64,000 bases of DNA from Heterodontus francisci (GCF_036365525.1 NC_090381.1:85553257-85617256); one strand, 5' to 3'. Positions 1 to 64,000 are shown, numbered from the stretch's first letter. Notes: generated by a model not told the origin, from the letters alone. Translations and numbers: made by a program.

Positions 1-32
1 AACAATAGGGATCAGTTCCACAACAACAGGAG
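1..32 (+). CDS. PTS exon, partial (3' end only)
   Basis: ...acaacaggag|GTACTGAG donor at 33, followed by a type-a intron. Confidence 0.75.
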
Positions 33-3000
33 GTACTGAGCGAGAAAAATTGTCTTTGTGTGGCATTTTAAACTTCATGTCCTGGGTAGAAACCTATTGA
101 CAAATGACTTTGATCAGAAATGTAAATAGTATATAGATTTTTGTTCTATACTCATGCTCATATTTTATGAGTATGAAATCAACAACATAAATGTGTGAGG
201 ACATTAATGTAATTTACAAAGAAGAAGTAAGATTGAGTCTCATCTTAAATTCTAAGGCTGAATTTCCATTTTGTCGACACAGCTCCATCAACTGCGGGAT
301 AGCACGTTTCAGGAGGTAGTCAACTGGATGCCTAAGTGAGCGCAGTCAGAGAGAGACTGGATAGCTGCCAGATGGACAAGAAAGTCAGGGCAGGTAGTGC
401 AGGAGTCCACGGAGTGTATCCCACTTTGTAACCGGTATTCAGTTCTGAGTACCAATGGGAAGGAGGGTTCCTCTGTAGAGTGCAGTGAGGGTCATGACCG
501 GAACATCGTGGGTCACTCAGCTGTGCAGGGAGGGAGGAAAAAGGACAAGACAGCAAAAGTGATAGGGGATTCTATGGTTAGAGGAACAGGTAGGTGTTTT
601 TGTGGTCGCAGACATGATTCCAGGATGGTTGTCTCCCTGGTGCAAAGATCATAGATATCACTGAGCGGCTACAGAGGATTCTGGAGGGCAAGGGTGCACA
701 GCCGGACGTCGTGGTCCACATTGGTACCAACGATATAGCAAGAAAGAGGGATAGGGTCCTGCAAGCTGAGTTTAGGGAGTTGGAAAAGAGATTAGCAAGC
801 AGGAAACCAAGGGTAATAATCTCCGGATTACTCCCAAGGCCACGTGTTAGTGAGTTTTGTAATAGGAGAATACACCAGATGAATGCGTGGCTGGAGAGAT
901 GGTGCAGGAGGGAGGACTTCAGATTTCTGGGACATCGGGAGCAGTTCTGGGGTAGGTGGGACCTGTATAAGCTGGATGGTCTGCACCTGAACAGGACTGA
1001 GACAAATATCCTTGCAGGAAGGTTTGCTCGTGCTGTGGGGGATGGTTTAACCTAGATTGGCGGGGGGATGGGAACCTGAGCGTGTCTTAGATTGGACAAT
1101 TTCAGTGCAGGGAACAGGATGCAGAAAATTAGTGAAATTGGCGAGTGACTCTAAAAGACAGAAGAAGAAAAGTTTAAAAAGTGTGCAACACAGGAATTTG
1201 GCAAAGTTAGAGGGTAGTTATTTAAATGCAAGGAGTATGGTAAATAAAGCAGATGAGTTGCGATCACAGACAGACACATGGCAACACGATCTCGTTGCGA
1301 AAATGGAAACTTGGCTTAAGGAGGGGCAAGAATGGCAGCTCAACACCCCTGGATTTAGTGTATTCAGGCGTGATAGAGAAGAAGATAAAAAAGGGGGAGG
1401 GGTGTAGCATTATTAGTTAAGGAATCAATAACAGCTTTGAGGAGGGATGATATGCTAAATGAATCATCAAACGAAGCCATGTGGGTGGAGCTCAGAAATA
1501 AAAAAGGGGGCAGCCACATTACTGGGAGTGTACTATAGACCCCCAAATAGTGAGAGGGAGATAGAGGAACAAATATGTAGGCAAATTTCTGAGTACAATA
1601 ACTTTACGGCGATGATGGTTGGGGAATTCAGCTACCCCAATATCGACTGAGATACGAACAGTGTGAAGGGCACATGGGGACAAAATTCTTGAACTGCATT
1701 CAAGAGAACCTTTTTAGCCAGCATGTAACAAGCCCAAGGAAAGGGGGTGCAATTCTAGTTTTAGTCTTCAGTAATGAAGCTGGGCAAGTGGATGAAGTAA
1801 CAGTGGGTGACCATAATACAGTTAGTTTTAGCATAATCATGGAAAAAGACAAAAATAAAACAGGAGCAAAGTTTCTAAATTGGGGGAAGGCAAATTTTAA
1901 GAAACTGAGAGGTGACTTGGTGAATGTGGACTGGATACAGCTACTTGAAGGAAAATCAGTGGCAAACCAGTGGGAGGTATTCAAGAGCAAGATACTACAG
2001 GCACAGTGTAGGCATATCCCCACAAAGATAAAGGGTACTGCCAAATTTAGAGCTCCCTGGTTATCTAGAAGCTTACACGGTAAGGTAAAGCAAAAAAAGA
2101 AAGCTTATGATGATCACAAATATTTTAATACTTTAAAAAGCCTAGAGGAGCATAGAAAGTGCAGGGGTGAAGTAAAAAAGGAAATTAGAAAAGCAAAGAG
2201 AGGACATGAAAAATTATTGGCCAGTAAAATCGAGGAAAGCCTGAAGTTGTTTTATCAGTACATTAAGAGTAAGAAGATAACTAAGGAAAGGGTAGGGTCT
2301 ATCAGAGATGCACAGAGGAACTTATGCATGGATGCAGAAGATGTGGGCAGGGTTCTTAATGAGTTTTTTGTCTCTGTCTTCACAAAGGAGAGAGTTGATG
2401 CAGACATTGTAGTTAAAGAGGAGGAGTGTGAAATATTAGATAAGATAAACATAATGAGAGAGGAAGTGCTTGAGGGTCTGACATCCCTGAAAGTGGATAA
2501 ATTTCCCAGACCGGATGTGTTGCATCCCAGGCTGTTAAAGGAAGCCAGGGAGGAAATAGTGGGTGCTCTGAGGATCATCTTCAAATCCTCATCAGAAACA
2601 GGCAAGGTACGAGATGATTGGAGTCTGCAAACATTGTACCATTGTTAAAAAAGGGTGCGAGGGATAAGCCAGGTAATTATAGGCCAGCCATTCTGACTTC
2701 GGTGATGGGTAAGTTGTTAAAATCTATTCTGATGGACAGGATAAACTGTATTTAGAAAGGCACGGATTAATCAGGGATCGTTAGCATGGATTTGTTAAGG
2801 GAAGGTTATAAGGTCTTACTAACTTGATTGAGTTTTTTGAGGAAGTAACAAGGAGGATTGATGAGGGTAGTGCAGTGGATATGCGTTACATGGATTTTAG
2901 TAGGGCATTTGACAAGGTCCCGCATGGCAGATTGGTCAATAAAATGAAAGCCCATGGGATACAGGGGAATGTGACAGATTGGATCCAGAATTGTCTCAGT

Positions 3001-6000
3001 GACGGGAAACAAAGGGTAGTAGTCGACGGATGTTTTTGTGAATGGAAAGCGGTTTCCAGTGGTGTTCCACAGGGATCAGTGTTGGGTCCCTTGCTGTTTG
3101 TGGTATATATTAATGATTTGAACTTAACTGTGGGAGGCATGATTGGGAAATTTGCTGGTGACACAATAATTGGTCGTGTAGTCGATAGTGAGGAGGGGAG
3201 TCGTGGACTCCAGAATGATATCAATGGTTTGGTTGGGTGGGCGGAAAAGTGGCAAATGGAATTCAGTCCTGAGAAGCGTGAGGTGATGTATTTCGAGAGG
3301 GCAAATAAAGTGAGGGAATATACAATAAATGGCAGGATATTGAGAGGTGTAGAAGAAGTGATAGATCTTAGAGAGCATGTCCACAGGTCCCTGAAGGTGG
3401 TAGGACAGGTAGATAAAGTGGTAAAGAAGGCATATGGATTTCTTTCCTTGATTGGCTGAGGTTTGGAGTACAAAAGCAGAGATGTGATGCTGGAGCTGTA
3501 TAGAGCGCTGGTTAGGCCACAGCTGGAGTATTGCGTGCAGTTCTGGTCACCACATTACAGAAAGGACATAATTGCTCTGAAGACAGTGCAGAGGATATTT
3601 GCAAGAATGTTGCCAGGGCTTGAGGGTTGCAGCTATGAGGAAAGATTGGATAAGTTGGGGTTGTTTTCCCAGGAATTGAGAAGGCTGAGGGGTGACTTGA
3701 TTGAGGTGTACGAAATTATGAGGGGCCCAGATGGAGTGGACAAAAAGACCTGTTTCCTCTGGCAGGGAAGTCGATTACAAGGGGACACAGATTTAAGGTG
3801 ATTGGCTGAAAGATTAAAGGGCACATGAGGAGAAACTCTTTCACCCAGAGGGTGGTGGGTGTCTGGAATTCAATGCCAGGATCGGGGATGGAGGCAGAGA
3901 TCCTCAAGTGGTTTAAAAGGTACCTGCACCTAAGATGCTGTAAGCTGCAGGGCTATGGACCAGGTGCTGGAAGGCGGGATTAGTTTGGGTAGATAGCTAT
4001 TCAGCCGGCGCGGACACGATGGGCTGAATGGCCTCCTTCTGTGATGTATTTTGTTCTATGTTCCAATTGCTCCCTCTATGACTTCTCCTGCTGTGAAATC
4101 TTCTGCAGCTGTACCATCAACAACTACAACATCAATCTTTACATCCACTTCAGCACCAACAATCACACCAGAACCAACAACTACAGAGAGATCCACTCAG
4201 CCATCAACAAGTGAATCCATAACAACAAGTTCAACAACGGGGATCAGTTCATCAACTACAGGAGGTACTGAGCAAGAGAAATGGTCTTGGTCAGGCATTT
4301 AACACGTCAGGCTCTGGAAGGAAATCTATTGCAGGATGACTTTTATCAGAGACATAGTAAGAACATGTATTGTTAGTCTATTCCCATGCACGAATCTTGT
4401 GAGCAGAGAATCAACAATATTAATATGTGCAGACAATAATGTAGTTTAAATAGAACAAGTACAATTCAGTCTCATCTTACATTCTAATGCGGAATATGGT
4501 TTTGTTTACACAGCTACATCAGCTGCTCCTACGACAACTACTCCTGCTGTGACATCTTCTACACCTGGACCATCGACAACTACAACACCAATTCTTACAT
4601 CCACTTCAGCACCAACAAGCACACCAGAACCAACAACTGTAGAGACATCCACTCAGCCATCAACAAGTGTATTCACAACAACAAGCTCAACAACAGGGAT
4701 TAGTTCCACAACAGGAATTAGTAAGGATTAGACAATTTATATCAACTATACCACACTGTCGGCAGTGTAAATAATTCAACTCGTCAGAGTTTCTGTTTGA
4801 GTTAAAAACTAGTTATATTTTGTTGCTTTATACTCACAGCTGGAATATGAATGCTTAACAATGAAAGTATACAAAGGCATCCAGATAGGAAATTGTAATA
4901 TTGTATTTGTCATATTTAACATCATGGTATTTATTTAGGACAAGTAAGATGAAGCCTGAAGTCATATTCTACAGCTAAATTTTGATTTTGTTTGAACAGC
5001 AACATCAGCTGCTCCTGTGACAACCAGTCCTGCCTTGTCATCTTCTACACCTGGACCATCAACAACTACAACACCAATCTTTACATCCACTTCAGTACCA
5101 ACAAGCACATCAGAACCAACAACTACAGAGAGATCCACTCAGCCATCAACAAGTGAATCCACAACAACAAGCTCAACAATGGGGACCAGTTCATCAACAA
5201 CAGGAATTAGTAAGGAATTGACCTTTTCTTTAAAAGCTATATCAGACTAATAGTGCTGAAAATAATTTTCAAGTCATGTCTTACTTTATGATAAGCTTAA
5301 AAACCAGTTATTTTTGCTTTGTAATCGCAACAGGAATAAGAACACTTAAAAAAAAAATATACAAAGTCATCCCGATTGAAAATTGCAATATTATATGTGC
5401 CAGATTTAACATCATGCAATTTATGTAGGACATGTAAGATTAAGTCTCAAGTCATATTCTAAGGCTAAATTTTGATTTTGTTTACACTGCTACATCAGCT
5501 GCTCCTACGGCAACTACTCCTGCTGGGACATCTTCTCTACCTATACCATCAACAACTACAACACCAATCCTTACATCCACTTCAGCACCAACAAGCACAC
5601 CAGAACAACCAACTACAGAGAGATCCACTCAGCCATCAACAATTGTATCCACAACAACAAGCTCAACAACGGGGATCAGTTCATCAACAACAGGAGGTAC
5701 TGAGCAAAAGAAGTTGTCTTTTTCAGGCATTTAACATTTCATGTTCTGGAAGGAAATCCATTACAGGATGACTTCTATCAGAGATGTAGACAGAACATTT
5801 ATTGTTAGTCTATACCCAGGCACAAATCTTGTGAGCATAGAATCAACAATATTAATGTGTGAGGACAATAATTTTGTTTAAATAGAACCAGTACATTTGA
5901 GTCTCACTTACATGTTAATGCTGAATATGATTTTGTTTACACAGCTACATCAGCTGCTCCTCCGACAACTACTCCTGCTGAGACATCTTTTCCACCTGTA

Positions 6001-9000
6001 CCATCAACAAATACAACACCAATCCTTCCAGCCACTTCAGCACCAGCAAGCACACCAGAACCAACAACTGTAGAGACATCGACTCAGCCATCAACAAGTG
6101 TATCCACAACAACAAGTTCAACAGGGATTAGTTCCACGACAGGAATTAGTAAGGATTAGACACTTTATATCAACTATACCACACTGTTGGCAGTGTAACT
6201 AATTCATCTCATTTCAGAGTTTCTGTTTGAATTAAAAACTGGTTATATTTTGTTGCTTTATACTCACCGTTGGAGTAAGAATGCTTAACAATGAAAGTAT
6301 ACAAAGGCATCCAGATAGGAAATTGTAATATTGTATTTGTCAGAGTTAACATCATGGGATTTATTTAGGACAAGTAAGATGAAGCCTGAAGTCATATTCT
6401 ACAGCTGAATTTTGATTTTGTTTACACAGCTACATCAACTGCTCCTGTGACAACCAGTCCTGCCTTGTCATCTTCTACACCTGGACCATCAACAACTACA
6501 ACACCAATCCTTACATCCACTTCAGCACCAACAATCACACCAGAACCAACAACTACAGAGAGAACCACTCAGCCATTAACAAGCGAATCCACAACATTGA
6601 CCTTAACAACAGGGATCAGTTCATCAACAATAGGAGGTACTGAGCAAGAGAAATTGTCTTGGTCAGGCATTTAACCCTTCAGGCTCTGGAAGGAAATCTG
6701 TTGCAGGATGAGTTTTATCAGAGATGTAGATAGAACATGTATTGTTTGTCTATACCCATGCACAAATCTTGTGAGCACAGAATCAACAATTTTAATGTGT
6801 GAGGACAATCATGTAGTTTAAATAGAACAAGTACAATTGAGTCTCATCATACATTCTAATGGTTAATATGGTTTTGTTTACACAGTTCCATCTGCTGCTC
6901 CTACGACAACTACTCCTGCTGGGACATCTTCTACACCTGTACCATCAACAAATACAACACCAATCCTTCCATCCACTTCAGCACCAACAAGCACACCAGA
7001 ACCAACAACTGTAGAGACATCCACTCAGCCATCAACAAGTGTATCCACAACAACAAGCTCAACAATAGAGATCAGTTCATCAACAGTAAGAATTAGTAAG
7101 GAATAGACCTTTTCTTTAAAAGCTATATCAGACTAATAGTGCTGAAATTAATTTTCAAGTCATGTCTTACTTTATGATAAGCTTAAAAACCAGTTATTTT
7201 TGCTTTGTAATCGCAACAGGAATAAGAACACTTCAAAACAAAAGTATACAAAGCCATCCCGATTGAAAATTGCAATATTATATGTGCCAGATTTAACATC
7301 ATGCCATTTATGTAGGACATGTAAGATTAAGTCTGAAGTCATATTCTACAGCTGAATTTTGATTTTGTTTACACAGCTACATCAGCTGCTCCTGTGACAA
7401 CCAGTCCTGCCTTGTCATCTTCTACACCTGGACCATCAACAACTACAACACCAATCCTTACATCCACTTCAGCACCAACAATCACACCAGAACCAACAAC
7501 TACAGAGAGAACCACTCAGCCATTAACAAGTGAATCCACAACATTGACCTTAACAACAGGGATCAGTTCATCAACAATAGAAGGTACTGAGCAAGAGAAA
7601 TTGTCTTGGTCAGGCATTTAACCCTTCAGGCTCTGGAAGGAAATCTGTTGCAGGATAAGTTTTGTCAGAGATGCAGATAGAACATGTATTGTTTGTCTAT
7701 CCCCATGCACAAATCTTGTGAGCATAGAATCAACAATATTAATGTGTGAGGACAATCATGTATTTTAAATAGAACAAGTACAATTGAGTCTCATCATACA
7801 TTCTAATGCTGAATATGATTTTGTTTACACAGCTACATCAGCTGCTCCTACGACAACTACTCCTGCTGGGACATCTTCTACACCTGTACCATCAACAACT
7901 ACAACACCAATCTCTACATCCACTTCAGCACCAACAATCACACCAGAACCAACAACTACAGAGAGATCCACTCAGCCATCAACAAGTGAATCCATAACAA
8001 CAAGTTCAACAACGGGGATCAGTTCATCAACAACAGGAGGTACTGAGCAAGAGAAATGGTCTTGGTCAGGCATTTAACACGTCAGGCTCTGGAAGGAAAT
8101 CTATTGCAGGATGACTTTTATCAGAGACATAGTAAGAACATGTATTGTTAGTCTATTCCCATGCACGAATCTTGTGAGCAGAGAATCAACAATATTAATA
8201 TGTGCAGACAATAATGTAGTTTAAATAGAACAAGTACAATTCAGTCTCATCTTACATTCTAATGCGGAATATGGTTTTGTTTACACAGCTACATCAGCTG
8301 CTCCTACGACAACTACTCCTGCTGTGACATCTTCTACACCTGGACCATCGACAACTACAACACCAATTCTTACATCCACTTCAGCACCAACAAGCACACC
8401 AGAACCAACAACTGTAGAGACATCCACTCAGCCATCAACAAGTGTATTCACAACAACAAGCTCAACAACAGGGATTAGTTCCACAACAGGAATTAGTAAG
8501 GATTAGACAATTTATATCAACTATACCACACTGTCGGCAGTGTAAATAATTCAACTCGTCAGAGTTTCTGTTTGAGTTAAAAACTAGTTATATTTTGTTG
8601 CTTTATACTCACAGCTGGAATATGAATGCTTAACAATGAAAGTATACAAAGGCATCCAGATAGGAAATTGTAATATTGTATTTGTCATATTTAACATCAT
8701 GGTATTTATTTAGGACAAGTAAGATGAAGCCTGAAGTCATATTCTACAGCTAAATTTTGATTTTGTTTGAACAGCAACATCAGCTGCTCCTGTGACAACC
8801 AGTCCTGCCTTGTCATCTTCTACACCTGGACCATCAACAACTACAACACCAATCTTTACATCCACTTCAGTACCAACAAGCACATCAGAACCAACAACTA
8901 CAGAGAGATCCACTCAGCCATCAACAAGTGAATCCACAACAACAAGCTCAACAATGGGGACCAGTTCATCAACAACAGGAATTAGTAAGGAATTGACCTT

Positions 9001-12000
9001 TTCTTTAAAAGCTATATCAGACTAATAGTGCTGAAAATAATTTTCAAGTCATGTCTTACTTTATGATAAGCTTAAAAACCAGTTATTTTTGCTTTGTAAT
9101 CGCAACAGGAATAAGAACACTTAAAAAAAAAATATACAAAGTCATCCCGATTGAAAATTGCAATATTATATGTGCCAGATTTAACATCATGCAATTTATG
9201 TAGGACATGTAAGATTAAGTCTCAAGTCATATTCTAAGGCTAAATTTTGATTTTGTTTACACTGCTACATCAGCTGCTCCTACGGCAACTACTCCTGCTG
9301 GGACATCTTCTCTACCTATACCATCAACAACTACAACACCAATCCTTACATCCACTTCAGCACCAACAAGCACACCAGAACAACCAACTACAGAGAGATC
9401 CACTCAGCCATCAACAATTGTATCCACAACAACAAGCTCAACAACGGGGATCAGTTCATCAACAACAGGAGGTACTGAGCAAAAGAAGTTGTCTTTTTCA
9501 GGCATTTAACATTTCATGTTCTGGAAGGAAATCCATTACAGGATGACTTCTATCAGAGATGTAGACAGAACATTTATTGTTAGTCTATACCCAGGCACAA
9601 ATCTTGTGAGCATAGAATCAACAATATTAATGTGTGAGGACAATAATTTTGTTTAAATAGAACCAGTACATTTGAGTCTCACTTACATGTTAATGCTGAA
9701 TATGATTTTGTTTACACAGCTACATCAGCTGCTCCTCCGACAACTACTCCTGCTGAGACATCTTTTCCACCTGTACCATCAACAAATACAACACCAATCC
9801 TTCCAGCCACTTCAGCACCAGCAAGCACACCAGAACCAACAACTGTAGAGACATCGACTCAGCCATCAACAAGTGTATCCACAACAACAAGTTCAACAGG
9901 GATTAGTTCCACGACAGGAATTAGTAAGGATTAGACACTTTATATCAACTATACCACACTGTTGGCAGTGTAACTAATTCATCTCATTTCAGAGTTTCTG
10001 TTTGAATTAAAAACTGGTTATATTTTGTTGCTTTATACTCACCGTTGGAGTAAGAATGCTTAACAATGAAAGTATACAAAGGTATCCAGATAGGAAATTG
10101 TAATATTGTATTTGTCAGAGTTAACATCATGGGATTTATTTAGGACAAGTAAGATGAAGCCTGAAGTCATATTCTACAGCTGAATTTTGATTTTGTTTAC
10201 ACAGCTACATCAACTGCTCCTGTGACAACCAGTCCTGCCTTGTCATCTTCTACACCTGGACCATCAACAACTACAACACCAATCCTTACATCCACTTCAG
10301 CACCAACAATCACACCAGAACCAACAACTACAGAGAGAACCACTCAGCCATTAACAAGCGAATCCACAACATTGACCTTAACAACAGGGATCAGTTCATC
10401 AACAATAGGAGGTACTGAGCAAGAGAAATTGTCTTGGTCAGGCATTTAACCCTTCAGGCTCTGGAAGGAAATCTGTTGCAGGATGAGTTTTATCAGAGAT
10501 GTAGATAGAACATGTATTGTTTGTCTATACCCATGCACAAATCTTGTGAGCACAGAATCAACAATTTTAATGTGTGAGGACAATCATGTAGTTTAAATAG
10601 AACAAGTACAATTGAGTCTCATCATACATTCTAATGGTTAATATGGTTTTGTTTACACAGTTCCATCTGCTGCTCCTACGACAACTACTCCTGCTGGGAC
10701 ATCTTCTACACCTGTACCATCAACAAATACAACACCAATCCTTCCATCCACTTCAGCACCAACAAGCACACCAGAACCAACAACTGTAGAGACATCCACT
10801 CAGCCATCAACAAGTGTATCCACAACAACAAGCTCAACAATAGAGATCAGTTCATCAACAGTAAGAATTAGTAAGGAATAGACCTTTTCTTTAAAAGCTA
10901 TATCAGACTAATAGTGCTGAAATTAATTTTCAAGTCATGTCTTACTTTATGATAAGCTTAAAAACCAGTTATTTTTGCTTTGTAATCGCAACAGGAATAA
11001 GAACACTTCAAAACAAAAGTATACAAAGCCATCCCGATTGAAAATTGCAATATTATATGTGCCAGATTTAACATCATGCCATTTATGTAGGACATGTAAG
11101 ATTAAGTCTGAAGTCATATTCTACAGCTGAATTTTGATTTTGTTTACACAGCTACATCAGCTGCTCCTGTGACAACCAGTCCTGCCTTGTCATCTTCTAC
11201 ACCTGGACCATCAACAACTACAACACCAATCCTTACATCCACTTCAGCACCAACAATCACACCAGAACCAACAACTACAGAGAGAACCACTCAGCCATTA
11301 ACAAGTGAATCCACAACATTGACCTTAACAACAGGGATCAGTTCATCAACAATAGGAGGTACTGAGCAAGAGAAATTGTCTTGGTCAGGCATTTAACCCT
11401 TCAGGCTCTGGAAGGAAATCTGTTGCAGGATGAGTTTTATCAGAGATGTAGATAGAACATGTATTGTTTGTCTATACCCATGCACAAATCTTGTGAGCAC
11501 AGAATCAACAATTGTAATGTGTGAGGACAATCATGTAGTTTAAATAGAACAAGTACAATTGAGTCTCATCATACATTCTAATGCTGAATATGGTTTTGTT
11601 TACACAGCTACATCTGCTGCTCCTACGACAACTACTCCTGCTGGGACATCTTCTACACCTGTACCATCAACAAATACAACACCAATCCTTCCATCCACTT
11701 CAGCACCAACAAGCACACCAGAACCAACAACTGTAGAGACATCCACTCAGCCATCAACAAGTGTATCCACAACAACAAGCTCAACAGGGATTAGTTCCAC
11801 AACAGGAATTTGTAAGGATTAGACACTTTATATCAACTATACCACACTGTTGGCAGTGTAAATAATTCAACTCATGTCAGAGTTTCTGTTTGAGTTAAAA
11901 ACTGGTTATATTTTGTTGCTTTATACTCACAGCTGGAATATGAATGCTTAACAATGAAAGTATACAAAGGCATCCAGATAGGAAATTGTAATATTGTATT

Positions 12001-41523: not shown

Positions 41524-42615
41524 TGTTACAGACTGGGGAAATGGTGTGTGACTTTCACTTCTCACCTCTTAACTGAATTCAGATAACTTTTGAAAAAATA
41601 TAGTGTATTAGTCGCTGAGTGTTTTAAGCATCAAATAAACAAACCAAGGGCAGATTTTCTTGTCAGTTGAAAAGTAATGATAACTATTTATTAAAACAAT
41701 ACTGTAAAATGTTTGCCAGCTCACTCACTCAATCAATCATTCATGCACATGCACATGCACACACAAAAGAAAAGGTAGAGAGTAGAGGGTAGCATGCAAC
41801 TAGAGTTCGATTGTTTTAAAGAGAATTCACTTTGAAACCTTCTTCGATTTCTGCGAGTGATTTTTAACAGTGTTGCATGCCTGAATGTTCCTTGTCTTGG
41901 AAATGAAGCAGTGTCGTTGACTCCTTTGGTTCAATGTCAGTCTGAAGTTGGTGGCGGAAGTCAGGTTCAGTATCTTAGACGGGGGGGTTTTCACCGTCAC
42001 CTTTCAATTTCTCTACCTCAGTAGTTTCAAGATAGTGCTTGCAGGGCTCCTTGCTCAGCTGGATTGATCTTACAGCTTCTCTTGCTGAATAATTTTCTGT
42101 CTCCCCCTCTCTCTCTGTGAAGTTACTTCTTTAAAGGTAAAAACTCACCGGGTTGTGGTTTCAGTCAGGCGATTCAAGACACTCTTCCCTGTGGTATTCG
42201 TACAATGTCCCAGGATGTGGGGACCATGGTTACAAAATGGCATCTGAATGTGATCCATTTTGATAAATAGGTGTTAATTTGCACCTATTACCTTGACCTT
42301 GGCTTTGGAGTAATTCTGCCTGCAAAAGCCTTTGCGAGCCCGATCTTTGATGATAGGAGTCATTAACATGGAATGGGCTGTTTTACATGTCAATGTGCCT
42401 TCTCAAGGCAATTCCAGATGTTAATAATGGACATGTCTTTAACAGACAAACATGTTGACTGGTAGAGCAGGACTAGATCACCTGACCTCACCCTCCCTGT
42501 TGCTGGGTAACAAAGTGTGAATTTTCTTTTAGCTTTGTTCAACGGCTACGCTTTCTCATAATTCCTCCAGCTCATTTCATGTTTCAACACTGTTCTCTCT
42601 ATGAGCCTGGTAACT
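41524..42615. repeat. LTR-like insertion of about 1-1.1 kb in the long EGF intron, repeated in every 2.58-kb unit
   Basis: Starts TGTTAC and has an inverted GTAACA at 42507-42512; absent from the paralogous short intron; no clear TSD. Confidence 0.4.
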
Positions 42616-43227
42616 CCATCTAAAAGCTCTCAATGCCCTGCAGAATCGCGATGACTTTAAGCAAAGTCGTTCGTGCACCTGAATAATTGAACAATCAGTG
42701 TCTCCCTGCTATATTCTGTGCCGCAGTGCAATAGGGATGTTCCGATTGCAGAATATTTGAATCATAGGATGGCTACAGCACAGAAGGAGGCCATTTGGCC
42801 CATCATGCCAGTGCCAGCTGTCTGCAGGAGCAACTCAGCAATACGATATCAGTTGAGGTAAATCAAACAGTTCCTCTGAAATTGCAAGTAGGGTTCACAA
42901 TATCTGCTCAGAGCCTTATGATATGCATCTCCAGACATGCATTTCTTCAATGCTCCTGTCATTTAACATAAATTGGGGCAGGAAGATTGTGGTTGCTGAC
43001 GGCAAGAGAGGAAAGTCATTTGTCAATAGCTTCCATACATTAATAAGTTTATATGCCAGTTTTATATTGGAAAACAAAACACCAGTAATGATATTGCTGT
43101 TGACTGTAAAGAGGAATCAAAAATTGTAAAGTGCATCATGATGTCTTGAAAACACATGATGTGGTAGACAATGTATCGTTTAATGCGCATCTAACTGAGC
43201 GAGGGATAACTGGACATTTCTCTGCAG

Positions 43228-43353
43228 ATATCGATGAATGTGCAACAAACACATCAACTTGTCAACAAATTTGCACCAATACAAATGGAAGCTTTACATG
43301 CAGTTGCTCTCCTGGCTTCAGCATCAACATGATGAACATTTCCCTTTGTGATG
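43228..43353 (+). pseudogene. cbEGF exon 1 with mutated donor (GG instead of GT)
   Basis: tgtgatg|GGAGGA versus GTAGGA in all other copies. Confidence 0.65.
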
Positions 43354-52300: not shown

Positions 52301-55300
52301 TTTGCCAGCTCACTCACTCAATCAATCATACATGCACATGCACATGCACACACAAAAGAAAAGGTAGAGAGTAGAGGGTAGCATGCAATTGGAGTTCGAT
52401 TGTTTTAAAGAGAATTCACTTTGAAACCTTCTTCGATTTCTGCGAGCGATTTTTAATTGCTTTGCAGGCCTGAATGTTCCTTGTCTTGGAAATGAAGCAG
52501 AGTCATTGACTCCTTTGGTTAAATGTCAGTCTGAAGTTGGTGGCGGAAGTCAGGTTCAGTATCTTAGACGGGGGGGTTTTCACCGTCACCTTTCACCTTC
52601 TCTACCTCAGTAGTTTAAAGATAGTGCTTGCAGGGCTCCTTGCTCAGCTGGATTGATCTTACAGCTTCTCTTGCTGAATAATTTTCTGTCTCCCCCTCTC
52701 TCTCTGTGAAGTTACTTCTTTAAAGGTAAAAACTCACCAGGTTGTGGTTTCAGTCAGGTGATTCAAGACACTCTTCCCTGTGGTATTCGTACAATGTCCC
52801 AGGATGTGGGGACCATGGTTACAAAATGGCATCTGAATGTGATCCATTTTGATAAATAGGTGTTAATTTGCACCTATTATCTTGACCTTGGCTTTGGAGT
52901 AATTCTGCCTGCAAAAGCCTTTGCGAGCCCGATCTTTGATGATAGGAGTCATTAACATGGAATGGGCTGTTTTACATGTCAATGTGCCTTTTCAAGGCAA
53001 TTCCAGATGTTAATAATGGACATGTCGTCAACAGACAAACATGTTGACTGGTAGAGCAGGACTAGATCACCTGACCTCACCCTCCCTGTTGCTGGGTAAC
53101 AAAGTGTGAATTTTCTTTTAGCTTTGTTCAACGGCTACGTTTTCTCATATTCCTCCAGCTCATTTCATGTTTCAACACTGTTCTCTCTGTGAGCCTGGTA
53201 ACTCCATCTAAAAGCTCTCAATGCCCTGCAGAATCGCGATGACTTTAAGCAAAGTCGTTCGTGCACCTGAATAATTGAACAATCAGTGTCTCCCTGCTAT
53301 ATTCTGTGCCGCAGTGCAATAGGGATGTTCCGATTGCAGAATATTTGAATCATAGGATGGCTACAGCACAGAAGGAGGCCATTTGGCCCATCATGCCAGT
53401 GCCAGCTGTCTGCAGGAGCAACTCAGCAATACGATATCAGTTGAGGTAAATCAAACAGTTCCTCTGAAATTGCAGGCAGGGTTCACAATATCTGCTCAGA
53501 GCCTTATGATGTGCATCTCCAGCCATGCACTTATTCAATGCTCCTGTCATTTAACATAAATTGGGGCAGGAAGATTGTGGTTGCTGACGGCAAGAGAGGA
53601 AAGTCATTTGTCAATAGCTTCCATACATTAATAAGTTTATATGCCAGTTTTATGTTGGAAAACAAAACACCAGTAATGATATTGCTGTTGACTGTAAAGA
53701 GGAATCAAAAATTGTATAGTGCATCATGATGTCTTGAAAACACATGATGTGGTAGACAATGTCTAGTTTAATGCGCATCTAACTGAGCGAGGGATAACTG
53801 GACTTTTCTCTTCAGACATTGATGAATGTGCAACCAACACATCAACTTGTCAACAAATCTGCACCAATACAAATGGAAGCTTTACATGCAGTTGCTATCC
53901 TGGCTTCAGCATCAACATGATGAACAGTTCCCTTTGTGATGGTAGGAAATCTTCAAACACACAGGTTCTCTGCAATTTTTGATTTGAACTTACAGACCAT
54001 CCTATAACTCTCAATGCCCTACAAATTCTAGATGAATTGAAGCACCTCAATGTGCTCCTTCATATTTAAAGAATCAGAGGCTGAATACAACAATCTGTAC
54101 CTGTATGCAGCAGAGTCATTTTGACTGCAGAAAATGATATCCTTTGTGGCAAATTAATAATTGTCTCAGAAACTGAAAGTAAGAATCACAGTTTCCGATC
54201 AAAGGTTTGTGCTTTGTAATTAAACAACCTTCCTGTTGTTTAGCCGAAAAGGGAACAGTAACATTATAGTTTGGCGATGGCTGGAGAGGAATGTCATGGC
54301 CAATAATAGCCATACATTTGTAATTTTATGTAATGCTAATGATATGCTTGTAAAAATATCTACACCCATGTTATTTCTGTTGAATGTAAAGAGGAATCGA
54401 AGAATGTCGTAGTGCATCATGATGTTTTGAAGACATGTGCTATCGATTGACAATGTATGGTCGAATATTAATCAGATTGAACGGAGAATAATTGGACTTT
54501 TTTCTGCAGATATTAATGAATGTACAACCAACACATCAACCTGCCAGCAAATCTGCACCAATACAAATGGAAGCTTTAAATGCAGTTGCTATCCTGGCTT
54601 CAACATCAACATGACAAACACTTCTCTTTGTGATGGTAGGAAATCTTCAAACACACAGATTCATTGCAACTGATGATTTCAAATTACACTCTGTTACAGA
54701 CCGGGGAAATGGTGTGTGTGACTTTCACTTCTCACCTCTTAATTGAATTCAGATAGCTTTTGAAAAAATATAGTGTCTTATTCCCTGAGTGTTTTAAGCA
54801 TCAAATAAACAAACCAAGGGCAGATTTTCTTGTCAGTTGAAAAGTAATGATAACTATTTATTGAAACAACAATGTAAAATGTTTGCCAGCTCACTCACTC
54901 AATCAATCATACATGCACATGCACATGCACACACAAAAGAAAAGGTAGAGAGTAGAGGGTAGCATGCAATTGGAGTTCGATTGTTTTAAAGAGAATTCAC
55001 TTTGAAACCTTCTTCGATTTCTGCGAGCGATTTTTAATTGCGTTGCAGGCCTGAATGTTCCTTGTCTTGGAAATGAAGCAGAGTCATTGACTCCTTTGGT
55101 TAAATGTCAGTCTGAAGTTGGTGGCGGAAGTCAGGTTCAGTATCTTAGACGGGGGGGTTTTCACCGTCACCTTTCACCTTCTCTACCTCAGTAGTTTCAA
55201 GATAGTGCTTGCAGGGCTCCTTGCTCAGCTGGATTGATCTTACAGCTTCTCTTGCTGAATAATTTTCTGTCTCCCCCTCTCTCTCTGTGAAGTTACTTCT

Positions 55301-58300
55301 TTAAAGGTAAAAACTCACCAGGTTGTGGTTTCAGTCAGGTGATTCAAGACACTCTTCCCTGTGGTATTCGTACAATGTCCCAGGATGTGGGGACCATGGT
55401 TACAAAATGGCATCTGAATGTGATCCATTTTGATAAATAGGTGTTAATTTGCACCTATTATCTTGACCTTGGCTTTGGAGTAATTCTGCCTGCAAAAGCC
55501 TTTGCGAGCCCAATCTTTGATGATAGGAGTCATTAACATGGAATGGGCTGTTTTACATGTCAATGTGCCTTTTCAAGGCAATTCCAGATGTTAATAATGG
55601 ACATGTCGTCAACAGACAAACATGTTGACTGGTAGAGCAGGACTAGATCACCTGACCTCACCCTCCCTGTTGCTGGGTAACAAAGTGTGAATTTTCTTTT
55701 AGCTTTGTTCAACGGCTACGTTTTCTCATATTCCTCCAGCTCATTTCATGTTTCAACACTGTTCTCTCTGTGAGCCTGGTAACTCCATCTAAAAGCTCTC
55801 AATGCCCTGCAGAATCGCGATGACTTTAAGCAAAGTCGTTCGTGCACCTGAATAATTGAACAATCAGTGTCTCCCTGCTATATTCTGTGCCGCAGTGCAA
55901 TAGGGATGTTCCGATTGCAGAATATTTGAATCATAGGATGGCTACAGCACAGAAGGAGGCCATTTGGCCCATCATGCCTGTGCCAGCTGTCTGCAGGAGC
56001 AACTCAGCAATACGATATCAGTTGAGGTAAATCAAACAGTTCCTCTGAAATTGCAAGTAGGGTTCACAATATCTGCTCAGAGCCTTATGATGTGCATCTC
56101 CAGCCATGCACTTATTCAATGCTCCTGTCATTTAACATAAATTGGGGCAGGAACATTGTGGTTGCTGACGGCAAGAGAGGAAAGTCATTTGTCAATAGCT
56201 TCCATACATTAATAAGTTTATATGCCAGTTTTATGTTGGAAAACAAAACACCAGTAATGATATTGCTGTTGACTGTAAAGAGGAATCAAAAATTGTATAG
56301 TGCATCATGATGTCTTGAAAACACATGATGTGGTAGACAATGTATCGTTTAATGCGCATCTAACTGAGCGAGGGATAACTGGACTTTTCTCTTCAGACAT
56401 TGATGAATGTGCAACCAACACATCAACTTGTCAACAAATCTGCACCAATACAAATGGAAGCTTTACATGCAGTTGCTATCCTGGCTTCAGCATCAACATG
56501 ATGAACAGTTCCCTTTGTGATGGTAGGAAATCTTCAAACACACAGGTTCTCTGCAATTTTTGATTTGAACTTACAGACCATCCTATAACTCTCAATGCCC
56601 TACACATTCTAGATGAATTGAAGCACCTCAATGTGCTCCTTCATATTTAAAGAATCAGAGGCTGAATACAACAATCTGTACCTGTATGCAACAGAGTCAT
56701 TTTGACTGCAGAAAATGATATCCTTTGTGGCAAATTAATAATTGTCTCAGAAACTGAAAGTAAGAATCACAGTTTCCGATCAAAGGTTTGTGCTTTGCAA
56801 TTAAACAACCTTCCTGTTGTTTAGCCGAAAAGGGAACAGTAACATTATAGTTTGGCGATGGCTGGAGAGGAATGTCATGGCCAATAATAGCCATACATTT
56901 GTAATTTTATGTAATGCTAATAATATGCTTGTAAAAATATCTACACCCATGTTATTTCTGTTGAATGTAAAGAGGAATCGAAGAATGTCGTAGTGCATCA
57001 TGATGTTTTGAAGACATGTGCTATCGATTGACAATGTATGGTCGAATATTAATCAGATTGAACGGAGAATAATTGGACTTTTTTCTGCAGATATTAATGA
57101 ATGTACAACCAACACATCAACCTGCCAGCAAATCTGCACCAATACAAATGGAAGCTTTAAATGCAGTTGCTATCCTGGCTTCAACATCAACATGACAAAC
57201 ACTTCTCTTTGTGATGGTAGGAAATCTTCAAACACACAGATTCATTGCAACTGATGATTTCAAATTACACTCTGTTACAGACCGGGGAAATGGTGTGTGT
57301 GACTTTCACTTCTCACCTCTTAACTGAATTCAGATAGCTTTTGAAAAAATATAGTGTCTTATTCCCTGAGTGTTTTAAGCATCAAATAAACAAACCAAGG
57401 GCAGATTTTCTTGTCAGTTGAAAAGTAATGATAACTATTTATTGAAACAACAATGTAAAATGTTTGCCAGCTCACTCACTCAATCAATCATACATGCACA
57501 TGCACATGCACACACAAAAGAAAAGGTAGAGAGTAGAGGGTAGCATGCAATTGGAGTTCGATTGTTTTAAAGAGAATTCACTTTGAAACCTTCTTCGATT
57601 TCTGCGAGCGATTTTTAATTGCGTTGCAGGCCTGAATGTTCCTTGTCTTGGAAATGAAGCAGAGTCATTGACTCCTTTGGTTAAATGTCAGTCTGAAGTT
57701 GGTGGCGGAAGTCAGGTTCAGTATCTTAGACGGGGGGGTTTTCACCGTCACCTTTCACCTTCTCTACCTCAGTAGTTTAAAGATAGTGCTTGCAGGGCTT
57801 CTTGCTCAGCTGGATTGATCTTACAGCTTCTCTTGCTGAATAATTTTCTGTCTCCCCCTCTCTCTCTGTGAAGTTACTTCTTTAAAGGTAAAAACTCACC
57901 AGGTTGTGGTTTCAGTCAGGTGATTCAAGACACTCTTCCCTGTGGTATTCGTACAATGTCCCAGGATGTGGGGACCATGGTTACAAAATGGCATCTGAAT
58001 GTGATCCATTTTGATAAATAGGTGTTAATTTGCACCTATTATCTTGCCCTTGGCTTTGGAGTAATTCTGCCTGCAAAAGCCTTTGCGAGCCCGATCTTTG
58101 ATGATAGGAGTCATTAACATGGAATGGGCTGTTTTACATGTCAATGTGCCTTTTCAAGGCAATTCCAGATGTTAATAATGGACATGTCGTCAACAGACAA
58201 ACATGTTGACTGGTAGAGCAGGACTAGATCACCTGACCTCACCCTCCCTGTTGCTGGGTAACAAAGTGTGAATTTTCTTTTAGCTTTGTTCAACGGCTAC

Positions 58301-61300
58301 GTTTTCTCATATTCCTCCAGCTCATTTCATGTTTCAACACTGTTCTCTCTGTGAGCCTGGTAACTCCATCTAAAAGCTCTCAATGCCCTGCAGAATCGCG
58401 ATGACTTTAAGCAAAGTCGTTCGTGCACCTGAATAATTGAACAATCAGTGTCTCCCTGCTATATTCTGTGCCGCAGTGCAATAGGGATGTTCCGATTGCA
58501 GAATATTTGAATCATAGGATGGCTACAGCACAGAAGGAGGCCATTTGGCCCATCATGCCAGTGCCAGCTGTCTGCAGGAGCAACTCAGCAATACGATATC
58601 AGTTGAGGTAAATCAAACAGTTCCTCTGAAATTGCAGGCAGGGTTCACAATATCTGCTCAGAGCCTTATGATGTGCATCTCCAGCCATGCACTTATTCAA
58701 TGCTCCTGTCATTTAACATAAATTGGGGCAGGAAGATTGTGGTTGCTGACGGCAAGAGAGGAAAGTCATTTGTCAATAGCTTCCATACATTAATAAGTTT
58801 ATATGCCAGTTTTATGTTGGAAAACAAAACACCAGTAATGATATTGCTGTTGACTGTACAGAGGAATCAAAAATTGTATAGTGCATCATGATGTCTTGAA
58901 AACACATGATGTGGTAGACAATGTCTAGTTTAATGCGCATCTAACTGAGCGAGGGATAACTGGACTTTTCTCTTCAGACATTGATGAATGTGCAACCAAC
59001 ACATCAACTTGTCAACAAATCTGCACCAATACAAATGGAAGCTTTACATGCAGTTGCTATCCTGGCTTCAGCATCAACATGATGAACAGTTCCCTTTGTG
59101 ATGGTAGGAAATCTTCAAACACACAGGTTCTCTGCAATTTTTGATTTGAACTTACAGACCATCCTATAACTCTCAATGCCCTACAAATTCTAGATGAATT
59201 GAAGCACCTCAATGTGCTCCTTCATATTTAAAGAATCAGAGGCTGAATACAACAATCTGTACCTGTATGCAGCAGAGTCATTTTGACTGCAGAAAATGAT
59301 ATCCTTTGTGGCAAATTAATAATTGTCTCAGAAACTGAAAGTAAGAATCACAGTTTCCGATCAAAGGTTTGTGCTTTGTAATTAAACAACCTTCCTGTTG
59401 TTTAGCCGAAAAGGGAACAGTAACATTATAGTTTGGCGATGGCTGGAGAGGAATGTCATGGCCAATAATAGCCATACATTTGTAATTTTATGTAATGCTA
59501 ATGATATGCTTGTAAAAATATCTACACCCATGTTATTTCTGTTGAATGTAAAGAGGAATGGAAGAATGTCGTAGTGCATCATGATGTTTTGAAGACATGT
59601 GCTATCGATTGACAATGTATGGTCGAATATTAATCAGATTGAACGGAGAATAATTGGACTTTTTTCTGCAGATATTAATGAATGTACAACCAACACATCA
59701 ACCTGCCAGCAAATCTGCACCAATACAAATGGAAGCTTTAAATGCAGTTGCTATCCTGGCTTCAACATCAACATGACAAACACTTCTCTTTGTGATGGTA
59801 GGAAATCTTCAAACACACAGATTCATTGCAACTGATGATTTCAAATTACACTCTGTTACAGACCGGGGAAATGGTGTGTGTGACTTTCACTTCTCACCTC
59901 TTAACTGAATTCAGATAGCTTTTGAAAAAATATAGTGTCTTATTCCCTGAGTGTTTTAAGCATCAAATAAACAAACCAAGGGCAGATTTTCTTGTCAGTT
60001 GAAAAGTAATGATAACTATTTATTGAAACAACAATGTAAAATGTTTGCCAGCTCACTCACTCAATCAATCATACATGCACATGCACATGCACACACAAAA
60101 GAAAAGGTAGAGAGTAGAGGGTAGCATGCAATTGGAGTTCGATTGTTTTAAAGAGAATTCACTTTGAAACCTTCTTCGATTTCTGCGAGCGATTTTTAAT
60201 TGCGTTGCAGGCCTGAATGTTCCTTGTCTTGGAAATGAAGCAGAGTCATTGACTCCTTTGGTTAAATGTCAGTCTGAAGTTGGTGGCGGAAGTCAGGTTC
60301 AGTATCTTAGACGGGGGGGTTTTCACCGTCACCTTTCACCTTCTCTACCTCAGTAGTTTCAAGATAGTGCTTGCAGGGCTCCTTGCTCAGCTGGATTGAT
60401 CTTACAGCTTCTCTTGCTGAATAATTTTCTGTCTCCCCCTCTCTCTCTGTGAAGTTACTTCTTTAAAGGTAAAAACTCACCAGGTTGTGGTTTCAGTCAG
60501 GTGATTCAAGACACTCTTCCCTGTGGTATTCGTACAATGTCCCAGGATGTGGGGACCATGGTTACAAAATGGCATCTGAATGTGATCCATTTTGATAAAT
60601 AGGTGTTAATTTGCACCTATTATCTTGACCTTGGCTTTGGAGTAATTCTGCCTGCAAAAGCCTTTGCGAGCCCGATCTTTGATGATAGGAGTCATTAACA
60701 TGGAATGGGCTGTTTTACATGTCAATGTGCCTTTTCAAGGCAATTCCAGATGTTAATAATGGACATGTCGTCAACAGACAAACATGTTGACTGGTAGAGC
60801 AGGACTAGATCACCTGACCTCACCCTCCCTGTTGCTGGGTAACAAAGTGTGAATTTTCTTTTAGCTTTGTTCAACGGCTACGTTTTCTCATATTCCTCCA
60901 GCTCATTTCATGTTTCAACACTGTTCTCTCTGTGAGCCTGGTAACTCCATCTAAAAGCTCTCAATGCCCTGCAGAATCGCGATGACTTTAAGCAAAGTCG
61001 TTCGTGCACCTGAATAATTGAACAATCAGTGTCTCCCTGCTATATTCTGTGCCGCAGTGCAATAGGGATGTTCCGATTGCAGAATATTTGAATCATAGGA
61101 TGGCTACAGCACAGAAGGAGGCCATTTGGCCCATCATGCCAGTGCCAGCTGTCTGCAGGAGCAACTCAGCAATACGATATCAGTTGAGGTAAATCAAACA
61201 GTTCCTCTGAAATTGCAAGTAGGGTTCACAATATCTGCTCAGAGCCTTATGATGTGCATCTCCAGCCATGCACTTATTCAATGCTCCTGTCATTTAACAT

Positions 61301-62378
61301 AAATTGGGGCAGGAACATTGTGGTTGCTGACGGCAAGAGAGGAAAGTCATTTGTCAATAGCTTCCATACATTAATAAGTTTATATGCCAGTTTTATGTTG
61401 GAAAACAAAACACCAGTAATGATATTGCTGTTGACTGTAAAGAGGAATCAAAAATTGTATAGTGCATCATGATGTCTTGAAAACACATGATGTGGTAGAC
61501 AATGTATCGTTTAATGCGCATCTAACTGAGCGAGGGATAACTGGACTTTTCTCTTCAGACATTGATGAATGTGCAACCAACACATCAACTTGTCAACAAA
61601 TCTGCACCAATACAAATGGAAGCTTTACATGCAGTTGCTATCCTGGCTTCAGCATCAACATGATGAACAGTTCCCTTTGTGATGGTAGGAAATCTTCAAA
61701 CACACAGGTTCTCCGCAATTTTTGATTTGAACTTACAGACCATCCTATAACTCTCAATGCCCTACACATTCTAGATGAATTGAAGCACCTCAATGTGCTC
61801 CTTCATATTTAAAGAATCAGAGGCTGAATACAACAATCTGTACCTGTATGCAACAGAGTCATTTTGACTGCAGAAAATGATATCCTTTGTGGCAAATTAA
61901 TAATTGTCTCAGAAACTGAAAGTAAGAATCACAGTTTCCGATCAAAGGTTTGTGCTTTGCAATTAAACAACCTTCCTGTTGTTTAGCCGAAAAGGGAACA
62001 GTAACATTATAGTTTGGCGATGGCTGGAGAGGAATGTCATGGCCAATAATAGCCATACATTTGTAATTTTATGTAATGCTAATGATATGCTTGTAAAAAT
62101 ATCTACACCCATGTTATTTCTGTTGAATGTAAAGAGGAATCGAAGAATGTCGTAGTGCATCATGATGTTTTGAAGACATGTGCTATCGATTGACAATGTA
62201 TGGTCGAATATTAATCAGATTGAACGGAGAATAATTGGACTTTTTTCTGCAGATATTAATGAATGTACAACCAACACATCAACCTGCCAGCAAATCTGCA
62301 CCAATACAAATGGAAGCTTTAAATGCAGTTGCTATCCTGGCTTCAACATCAACATGACAAACACTTCTCTTTGTGATG
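43228..62378 (+). CDS. Tandem array of at least 15 calcium-binding EGF-domain exons (126 nt, phase 1-1); continues beyond the window
   Basis: DI[D/N][25 protein letters not shown].....SLCD matches the cbEGF consensus D-x-D/N-E-C and C-x-N-x4-F-x-C-x-C; ctgcAG|at or ttcAG|ac acceptors, gatg|GTAGGA donors. Confidence 0.9.
43671..44319 (+). mobile_element. Penelope-like element 3' fragment (GIY-YIG C-terminus plus terminal repeat with hammerhead motif)
   Basis: Encodes [51 protein letters not shown]; 649-bp insertion relative to other units (exon spacing 1343 vs 694); cag at both junctions. Confidence 0.85.
44215..44252 (+). ncRNA. Minimal type I hammerhead ribozyme-like motif (Penelope-associated; core variant CCGAAGA)
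   Basis: agtt-CCGAAGA-a-gggtc-act-gaccc-GAAACGTT-aact: stem I agtt/aact, stem II gggtc/gaccc, palindromic stem III. Confidence 0.55.
44571..44696 (+). CDS. cbEGF exon (B type)
   Basis: ctgcAG|at ... gatg|GTAGGA. Confidence 0.85.
44799..45101 (-). mobile_element. tRNA-derived SINE (HE1-like)
   Basis: Minus strand gggcggcacagtggcgcagtggttagc (A box) ... ggttcgattct (B box); 3' tail resembles the CR1 3' end; about 303 bp extra versus other units. Confidence 0.9.
46763..46888 (+). CDS. cbEGF exon (A type)
   Basis: AG/GT bounded, 126 nt. Confidence 0.85.
47457..47582 (+). CDS. cbEGF exon (B type)
   Basis: AG/GT bounded, 126 nt. Confidence 0.85.
49346..49471 (+). CDS. cbEGF exon (A type followed by a long B-type intron; recombinant unit)
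   Basis: AG/GT bounded, 126 nt. Confidence 0.85.
51235..51360 (+). CDS. cbEGF exon (A type)
   Basis: ttttctgggcAG|at ... GTAGGA. Confidence 0.8.
51929..52054 (+). CDS. cbEGF exon (B type)
   Basis: AG/GT bounded, 126 nt. Confidence 0.85.
53816..53941 (+). CDS. cbEGF exon (A type)
   Basis: AG/GT bounded, 126 nt. Confidence 0.85.
54510..54635 (+). CDS. cbEGF exon (B type)
   Basis: AG/GT bounded, 126 nt. Confidence 0.85.
56397..56522 (+). CDS. cbEGF exon (A type)
   Basis: AG/GT bounded, 126 nt. Confidence 0.85.
57091..57216 (+). CDS. cbEGF exon (B type)
   Basis: AG/GT bounded, 126 nt. Confidence 0.85.
58978..59103 (+). CDS. cbEGF exon (A type)
   Basis: AG/GT bounded, 126 nt. Confidence 0.85.
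59672..59797 (+). CDS. cbEGF exon (B type)
   Basis: AG/GT bounded, 126 nt. Confidence 0.85.
61559..61684 (+). CDS. cbEGF exon (A type)
   Basis: AG/GT bounded, 126 nt. Confidence 0.85.
62253..62378 (+). CDS. cbEGF exon (B type)
   Basis: AG/GT bounded, 126 nt. Confidence 0.85.
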
Positions 62379-64000
62379 GTAGGAAATCTTCAAACACACA
62401 GATTCATTGCAACCGATGATTTCAAATTACACTCTGTTACAGACCGGGGAAATGGTGTGTGTGACTTTCACTTCTCACCTCTTAACTGAATTCAGATAGC
62501 TTTTGAAAAAATATAGTGTCTTATTCCCTGAGTGTTTTAAGCATCAAATAAACAAACCAAGGGCAGATTTTCTTGTCAGTTGAAAAGTAATGATAACTAT
62601 TTATTGAAACAACAATGTAAAATGTTTGCCAGCTCACTCACTCAATCAATCATACATGCACATGCACATGCACACACAAAAGAAAAGGTAGAGAGTAGAG
62701 GGTAGCATGCAATTGGAGTTCGATTGTTTTAAAGAGAATTCACTTTGAAACCTTCTTCGATTTCTGCGAGCGATTTTTAATTGCGTTGCAGGCCTGAATG
62801 TTCCTTGTCTTGGAAATGAAGCAGAGTCATTGACTCCTTTGGTTAAATGACAGTCTGAAGTTGGTGGCGGAAGTCAGGTTCAGTATCTTAGACGGGGGGG
62901 TTTTCACCGTCACCTTTCAATTTCTCTACCTCAGTAGTTTAAAGATAGTGCTTGCAGGGCTCCTTGCTCAGCTGGATTGATCTTACAGCTTCTCTTGCTG
63001 AATAATTTTCTGTCTCCCCCTCTCTCTCTGTGAAGTTACTTCTTTAAAGGTAAAAACTCACCAGGTTGTGGTTTCAGTCAGGTGATTCAAGACACTCTTC
63101 CCTGTGGTATTCGTACAATGTCCCAGGATGTGGGGACCATGGTTACAAAATGGCATCTGAATGTGATCCATTTTGATAAATAGGTGTTAATTTGCACCTA
63201 TTATCTTGACCTTGGCTTTGGAGTAATTCTGCCTGCAAAAGCCTTTGCGAGCCCAATCTTTGATGATAGGAGTCATTAACATGGAATGGGCTGTTTTACA
63301 TGTCAATGTGCCTTTTCAAGGCAATTCCAGATGTTAATAATGGACATGTCGTCAACAGACAAACATGTTGACTGGTAGAGCAGGACTAGATCACCTGACC
63401 TCACCCTCCCTGTTGCTGGGTAACAAAGTGTGAATTTTCTTTTAGCTTTGTTCAACGGCTACGTTTTCTCATATTCCTCCAGCTCATTTCATGTTTCAAC
63501 ACTGTTCTCTCTGTGAGCCTGGTAACTCCATCTAAAAGCTCTCAATGCCCTGCAGAATCGCGATGACTTTAAGCAAAGTCGTTCGTGCACCTGAATAATT
63601 GAACAATCAGTGTCTCCCTGCTATATTCTGTGCCGCAGTGCAATAGGGATGTTCCGATTGCAGAATATTTGAATCATAGGATGGCTACAGCACAGAAGGA
63701 GGCCATTTGGCCCATCATGCCTGTGCCAGCTGTCTGCAGGAGCAACTCAGCAATACGATATCAGTTGAGGTAAATCAAACAGTTCCTCTGAAATTGCAAG
63801 TAGGGTTCACAATATCTGCTCAGAGCCTTATGATGTGCATCTCCAGCCATGCACTTATTCAATGCTCCTGTCATTTAACATAAATTGGGGCAGGAACATT
63901 GTGGTTGCTGACGGCAAGAGAGGAAAGTCATTTGTCAATAGCTTCCATACATTAATAAGTTTATGTGCCAGTTTTAGGTTGGAAAACAAAACACCAGTAA

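Follow-up and report, generated by a model that had tools for sequence, protein, structure and literature searches.

In chicken Muc13 each proline-, threonine- and serine-rich (PTS) repeat of the mucin domain is encoded by its own exon, and control of the domain's length by splicing was proposed (PMC1552070); the mucin domain of Xenopus MucXS/Otogl is likewise distributed over many exons (PMC5789918). ADGRE1 carries single-exon calcium-binding EGF (cbEGF) modules, in frame and multiplied by block duplication up to about 14, each of which can probably be skipped (PMC6174849). In sharks, proteomics of skin mucus reported gel-forming mucins only (PMC10707392). These and the other papers cited by PMC number are quoted as far as their accessible sections go. 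Here we describe a stretch of 64,000 nt from Heterodontus francisci (GCF_036365525.1 NC_090381.1:85553257-85617256; one strand, coordinates counted from its first letter), hereafter the window, that is probably the middle of one elasmobranch mucin gene in which one PTS exon and one cbEGF exon of Muc4 type were amplified, with an extended stalk as the product. The locus is an unusually expanded example of a design known in vertebrate mucins and receptors and does not amount to a novel system of immune diversity. The elements of this design are all known already; what is new is how large both arrays are within a single locus, together with the homogenised EGF rod rich in N-glycan sites. The PTS array runs on upstream of position 1 and the window ends inside the EGF array:

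1..32, + strand: 3' end of a PTS cassette exon truncated by the window edge (blastn match)
283..4264, + strand: PTS cassette exon split by a long interspersed nuclear element (LINE) into two pieces (283-295, 4064-4264); 7 nt are nearly duplicated at the junctions
4514..17520, + strand: 28 PTS cassette exons of 204-210 nt, phase 1-1, with introns of ~250-280 nt and two donor types
22693..22875, + strand: shortened PTS unit of 183 nt, cut off from the main array by an antisense LINE
23467..23643, + strand: divergent last PTS exon of 177 nt, phase 1-1, that aligns to catshark PTS repeats
23644..43227, + strand: putative intron of 19.6 kb, at least 51% LINE-like
43228..62378, + strand: 15 cbEGF cassette exons of 126 nt each, mostly in two-exon units of 2581 bp (exon starts 43228, 44571, 46763, 47457, 49346, 51235, 51929, 53816, 54510, 56397, 57091, 58978, 59672, 61559, 62253)
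62379..64000, + strand: intron of the repeat unit, cut by the end of the window; the EGF array goes on

Search of the window with one PTS unit as blastn query gave 32 matches, which comprise 29 uninterrupted units, the LINE-split unit and the 3' end at 1-32. The original prediction, made by inspection of this DNA, had counted about 31 PTS exons followed on the same strand by at least 15 cbEGF exons; both figures are recovered, the first as 29 uninterrupted, one LINE-split and one edge unit, to which the divergent last exon is added, and the second as the 15 exons at 43228-62378, all on the + strand. The 29 uninterrupted units (28 at 4514-17520 and one at 22693-22875) are 183-210 nt long, all multiples of three in phase 1 on the + strand, and none of the 29 holds a stop codon. 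They comprise 1995 codons (2054 with the divergent 177-nt exon). Their residues are 36% threonine, 22% serine and 14% proline, which together make up ~71% of 1966 residues, as expected of a mucin PTS domain, and 20 distinct peptides are found among the 29. Two higher-order repeats, one of eight units (3775 bp, with one mismatch in 3280 nt) and one of four units (~1890 bp), are present within the array. The alignment of PTS exon DNA has one internal gap block, of 3 nt, while one of nine intron gap blocks is a multiple of three, too few events for an indel test. Splice signals vary between copies. Two of the 29 units (5490, 9265) have TG instead of AG at the acceptor; in both, a CAG follows in frame after 9 nt. 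In 19/29 PTS exons a second in-frame CAG lies 9 nt from the exon start, and the donors are of two types 3 nt apart, one weaker-looking, paired with intron classes of ~280 and ~249 nt.

The 15 cbEGF exons (630 codons, all multiples of three in phase 1) each encode six cysteines together with the calcium-binding (D/N-x-D/N-E/Q start) and hydroxylation patterns, and the Pfam EGF_CA cut-off was exceeded in both of the two exons tested. They encode just eight peptides, 85-98% identical to the reference copy. All 15 modules carry three or four N-glycan sequons, whereas three or more occur in only 11 of 410 comparison modules. The middle sequon overlaps the POGLUT2/3 O-glucosylation pattern (in the form given by a section heading of PMC8405936) in 15/15 exons, and both modifications may therefore compete. 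At the DNA level the four central EGF pairs differ from one another in 4-21 columns and from an older pair in 96-97. The closest two dimer units have 4 differing columns of 2583; the variable sites among the four units are 27 substitutions without any indel, eight of them common to alternate units. Unequal crossover with conversion is a better fit to this pattern than random errors in the sequence, although the copy number may not be exact. The first cbEGF exon (43228) is the sole one among the 15 with a GG instead of a GT donor.

All 18 combinations of an exon's last base with the first dinucleotide of another give a sense codon, so any exon subset keeps an open frame, as had been foreseen from the lengths and phases. 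Because every exon is symmetric phase 1, gains and losses of copies, as well as dead and skipped ones, leave the frame open. The cassette anatomy first described stands, with qualifications for the two TG acceptors among the 29 PTS exons, the GG donor in one of the 15 EGF exons and two dead EGF relics, all of which had been missed. In a live gene, splicing would have to skip these relics at the least. The split PTS exon might be treated otherwise: an in-frame phase-1 cryptic acceptor at 4107-4108 could possibly rescue 156 nt of it. The element inside that exon and the two relics are the following:

296..4063, + strand: decayed LINE inside the PTS exon, with Lipase_GDSL_2 at 618-1052 (esterase-like ORF1 piece) and RVT_1 at 2812-3456 (reverse transcriptase (RT) piece)
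38544..38743, + strand: old decayed cbEGF exon copy with indels (nhmmer E 1e-11)
41384..41489, + strand: cbEGF copy without acceptor and 5' part, the loss being flanked on both sides by a 6-nt word; the homogenised array has its left edge here

The LINE at 296-4063 is presumably of CR1 type. A weak match to the start of the EGF exon (nhmmer E 0.025) at 38924-38985, beside an antisense LINE, is perhaps a third relic.

The two arrays are under different regimes. The EGF exons are under purifying selection: their ratio of non-synonymous to synonymous differences per site (pN/pS) is 0.25, and their alleles comprise 12 non-synonymous changes against 38.8 expected at the intron rate and 8 synonymous ones against 10.6 expected (share p=0.047). 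The PTS exons give a pairwise pN/pS of 1.62. Positive selection on them was considered on the basis of this value and dropped, as no excess of amino-acid change is seen with each allele counted once (synonymous share 0.224 against 0.264 expected, p=0.46). No stop is present among 85 PTS alleles (P=0.04 under neutrality). The PTS exons keep frame and composition, and their sequence drifts neutrally. EGF constraint and PTS drift therefore argue against a diversifying receptor.

Closest to the locus are gene models of other elasmobranchs. The EGF profile search, read from the best 120 of 139 matches (from 256 candidates), returned proteins of the catshark Scyliorhinus torazame (85% identity) and of the skate Rhinoraja longicauda (XP_078266272.1; 76%). 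The module comparison used 43 of the 120 listed rows, the rows left out including one of 1119 aa with 66% identity. The catshark RefSeq models XP_072330233-242 have a start that resembles a signal peptide by eye, then PTS repeats, the orthologous cbEGF and a further exon; the EGF exon is missing from isoform X6 and a short linker from X3. RefSeq isoform sets of this kind usually rest on RNA-seq. The divergent last PTS exon of the window aligns to the whole catshark PTS region with a score that none of 2000 shuffles reaches (6/2000 against its last repeat). The intron preceding the EGF exons matches the read-through N-terminus of catshark GCB77993.1, always at an offset of -39, and 7/15 EGF exons score 28-32 in this test against a best background score of 23 over 126,484 positions. 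Catshark and skate share with the window the cbEGF module and a homologous acceptor intron and, in catshark, PTS before EGF and model isoforms with and without the EGF exon. They differ in size, with one to three EGFs and a short PTS region against at least 15 EGF and at least 32 PTS exons here, and another PTS unit was amplified than in the window. The models, which join both parts, agree with the predicted mucin-type extracellular protein of cartilaginous fish, probably from one gene. Searches with the 32 residues that follow the EGF in catshark matched catshark proteins only, and Atlas searches gave no usable match. A single-sequence fold of the catshark two-EGF protein was discarded (mean predicted local distance difference test score 40).

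Among the better described systems, the chicken and zebrafish Muc13 and Xenopus MucXS genes resemble the locus in spreading a mucin domain over many exons; a long homogenised cbEGF array is not described for them in the sections available, and their SEA (Muc13) or VWD (MucXS) domain was not found in the window. The EGF-TM7 receptors ADGRE1 and CD97 share with it single in-frame cbEGF exons, block duplication and skipping, but their EGFs diverge within and between species, while those of the window are near-identical. Fibrillin and LTBP arrays share the cbEGF consensus and the POGLUT2/3 pattern. TB domains break their cbEGF runs, in contrast to the window, where 15 consecutive EGF exons are separated only by repeat-unit introns, and fibrillin modules fall outside the window's clade in the tree described below.

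PTS tracts carry O-glycans, and calcium makes pairs of cbEGF modules stiff. At the DNA level the PTS exon and the Muc4-type cbEGF exon were each multiplied, introns included, by unequal crossover, and concerted evolution keeps the copies alike. The gene would run from a signal peptide outside the window through PTS cassettes and cbEGF cassettes to a C-terminal part. From its motifs, the product may combine two stretches, first up to ~2000 residues bearing a brush of O-glycans and then a rod of EGF modules stiffened by calcium, each module with three to four N-glycan sites. Its role is most likely that of a steric, hydrated barrier or spacer on epithelium, in which length would be the variable and not binding specificity. 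Protein length would differ between alleles, and probably between isoforms. Of the two routes of length change originally proposed, unequal crossover is borne out by the higher-order repeats, and exon skipping is made probable by the broken cassettes and the catshark model without the EGF exon.

Several observations weigh against this account of the locus. No membrane anchor was found in the window, which leaves a secreted and a tethered product both possible. A profile built from 10 PTS exons and searched against proteins placed none of 8000 scored candidates under E 0.001, and the EGF profile search gave no near-identical record among the matches listed. The catshark records are annotation models that end in apparent intron read-through. 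The repeated PTS units match catshark PTS weakly, 13-297 of 2000 shuffles reaching the score, and in the intron test 8/15 EGF exons stay at background level, with scores of 11-21. The lack of PTS stops is non-significant within donor classes (P 0.12, 0.17), and the selection tests are based on few, non-independent alleles.

The two arrays likely belong to one gene, to judge from the exon arrangement and the catshark models. The 19.6-kb gap between them, several kilobases of which are not explained by elements, and the catshark isoform X6 without EGF would suit two separate same-strand genes, a PTS mucin and an EGF-array protein. We consider this unlikely. PTS and EGF are both carried by five of the six catshark isoform classes seen. 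No homology to NIDO, VWD, SEA, GAIN or transmembrane (TM) segments was found in 23644-43227 or elsewhere in the window, no other recognisable gene part was found in the gap, and no signal peptide was found in the window. The gap has two signal-peptide-like starts on the + strand, both at LINE 3' ends, and one in the minus-strand control. A candidate-exon scan yielded none at thresholds stricter than most of the gene's own exons pass; at lowered thresholds it gave eight candidates on the + strand and three in the control, which resemble nothing known. A diversifying molecule of immunity or recognition, with alternative cassettes that would offer different binding surfaces, is less probable still. 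The pairwise PTS ratio and the 20 distinct PTS peptides could be taken in its favour, but the ratio dissolves in the count of each allele once, the EGF copies are homogenised and purified, and mutually exclusive divergent exons were not seen. Receptors diversified by splicing in the manner of Dscam have divergent alternative exons under positive selection; none of this kind were found in the window. The diversifying molecule of the original prediction finds no support, there being only eight EGF peptides, 12 non-synonymous alleles against ~39 expected, and no excess of PTS amino-acid change. We would be just as surprised by a pseudogene or by arrays inflated through assembly error. Dead cassettes and LINE insertions are present, and the 3775-bp duplicate with its single mismatch, like the two EGF dimers that differ at 4/2583 columns, is what a faulty assembly might produce. 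Against this, frames are open in 29/29 PTS and 15/15 EGF exons, the EGF exons are under purifying selection, and the 27 differences among the four EGF dimers are substitutions without an indel, eight of them in alternate units.

Within the reading as one amplified mucin gene, the family is best approached through the cbEGF module. Outside elasmobranchs the closest module among the matches listed is a cbEGF of amphibian Muc4 (54-59% identity, same Cys spacing). The Cys spacing of the window module occurs in 15 of 427 modules and, among vertebrate rows, only in the elasmobranch relatives and amphibian Muc4. A tree of 98 rows (8 window peptides and 90 of 416 modules) and 41 columns, with unsettled bootstrap and rows picked from matches to the same query, has a starred clade of 17 rows (98/88) with the window, catshark, skate, two amphibian Muc4 and two Trichoplax mucin-like modules. 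The EGF modules are thus of the Muc4 lineage, with the rough support of a short module. Two assignments are about equally tenable, each tentative and both compatible with an amplified mucin gene. The window may represent the 5' portion of Muc4 proper, as orthologue or paralogue, with the NIDO-AMOP-VWD, EGF and TM exons lying beyond it. Alternatively, its cbEGF exon of Muc4 type may sit in an elasmobranch-specific or Muc13/HEG1-like SEA mucin. Besides the clade and the shared Cys spacing, Muc4 proper is favoured by the alternation of PTS and EGF blocks in bullfrog mucin-4 (Aquarana XP_073482553.1: PTS, EGFs, NIDO, VWD, cbEGFs, PTS, NIDO, VWD, EGFs, TM-like segment), by the skate relative, in which EGFs are followed by PTS, and by a gene labelled muc4 that marks dogfish skin mucosal cells (PMC13558645). 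The two PTS-NIDO-VWD blocks in the 3519-aa Aquarana chain may reflect a true duplication within the gene, or the annotation may have joined two genes. In the amphibian proteins (also Geotrypetes XP_033815553.1), however, the EGFs are mutually divergent and flank NIDO and VWD, neither of which is found in the window; tblastn with two amphibian Muc4 and with two invertebrate NIDO proteins gave no NIDO/VWD match there. The best-matching amphibian module sits after VWD and not after PTS, the 32 residues after the catshark EGF have no counterpart in three Muc4-like proteins (scores equalled by 114-342 of 500 shuffles), and the tree has the limits given above. The catshark order, signal peptide-PTS-EGF-new exon, speaks for the second assignment. 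We take the catshark tail to resemble the start of an SEA fold, as our assumption and not as a result; Pfam SEA is unmatched in the catshark proteins, the tail is non-significant against four SEA or SEA-like regions, no homologue of it was found, and neither Muc13 nor HEG1 is among the matches listed in the EGF profile search. The window has its PTS repeats one to an exon, as described for chicken and zebrafish Muc13 (PMC1552070), though the trait is not unique to Muc13/HEG1. An ADGRE-type adhesion G protein-coupled receptor with a mucin N-terminus, its EGF exons skipped as in ADGRE1/CD97, is unlikely, a little more so than two separate genes. ADGRE1 typically has single cbEGF exons that are duplicated and skipped (PMC6174849), and ADGRE5 is the top solved-structure match of the catshark two-EGF protein, but that PDB ranking adds up several domains, the modules of the one ADGRE tested (Amia) lie outside the window's clade with a different Cys spacing, and neither GAIN nor 7TM homology was found in the window.

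A more specific possibility, which we hold rather doubtful, is a Muc4-derived, elasmobranch-specific family without NIDO-AMOP-VWD, in which the heavily N-glycosylated cbEGF exon and the PTS exon were amplified separately and the lengths of two brushes are set independently by regulated skipping. If so, one gene with an O-glycan brush and a calcium-stiffened N-glycan brush would tune glycocalyx thickness tissue by tissue. The window shows exon birth and death side by side (recent duplicates, lost splice sites, an exon invaded by a LINE, decayed relics) and is a good test case for the idea, put forward in 2006 for chicken Muc13, that mucin length is controlled by splicing; it gives no pointer to a new mechanism of immune diversification. 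Annotation of membrane mucins in cartilaginous fish is poor, with nothing but fragmentary 'uncharacterized' models as close records, and, as this locus shows, such a gene can greatly exceed the size of its models. Literature searches, to which most subscription papers were out of reach, gave no description of the locus or gene, and the accessible sections of PMC4948705 and PMC9578598 hold nothing on the present gene. The locus had been put forward as undescribed, which in these searches is true of the gene and not of its design, in view of chicken Muc13 (PMC1552070) and ADGRE1 (PMC6174849).

An Rfam scan gave no matches. The antisense LINE between the PTS array and the last PTS unit (17640-22230) has endonuclease and RT pieces, and its 3' part is present twice (17638-18264 and 21452-22229, 84-86% identical). 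Within the inter-array gap, 23970-26670 holds antisense pieces of LINEs (zf-RVT, RVT_1) that are broken by a sense LINE 3' fragment at ~24900-25800. Nested LINEs occupy 32160-38220, where an RT element is interrupted or followed by a second type (33970-36800) and then by a partial copy of the first with ~90% identity. A decayed DNA-transposase remnant, which we take to be Harbinger-like, lies at 27200-27760 (DDE_Tnp_4, E 0.002, under the curated cut-off and in one of three pieces tested). Three copies of a short dispersed repeat, probably the end of a short interspersed nuclear element, are found at 20021-20151, 29475-29599 and 44218-44319 and are 81-91% identical.

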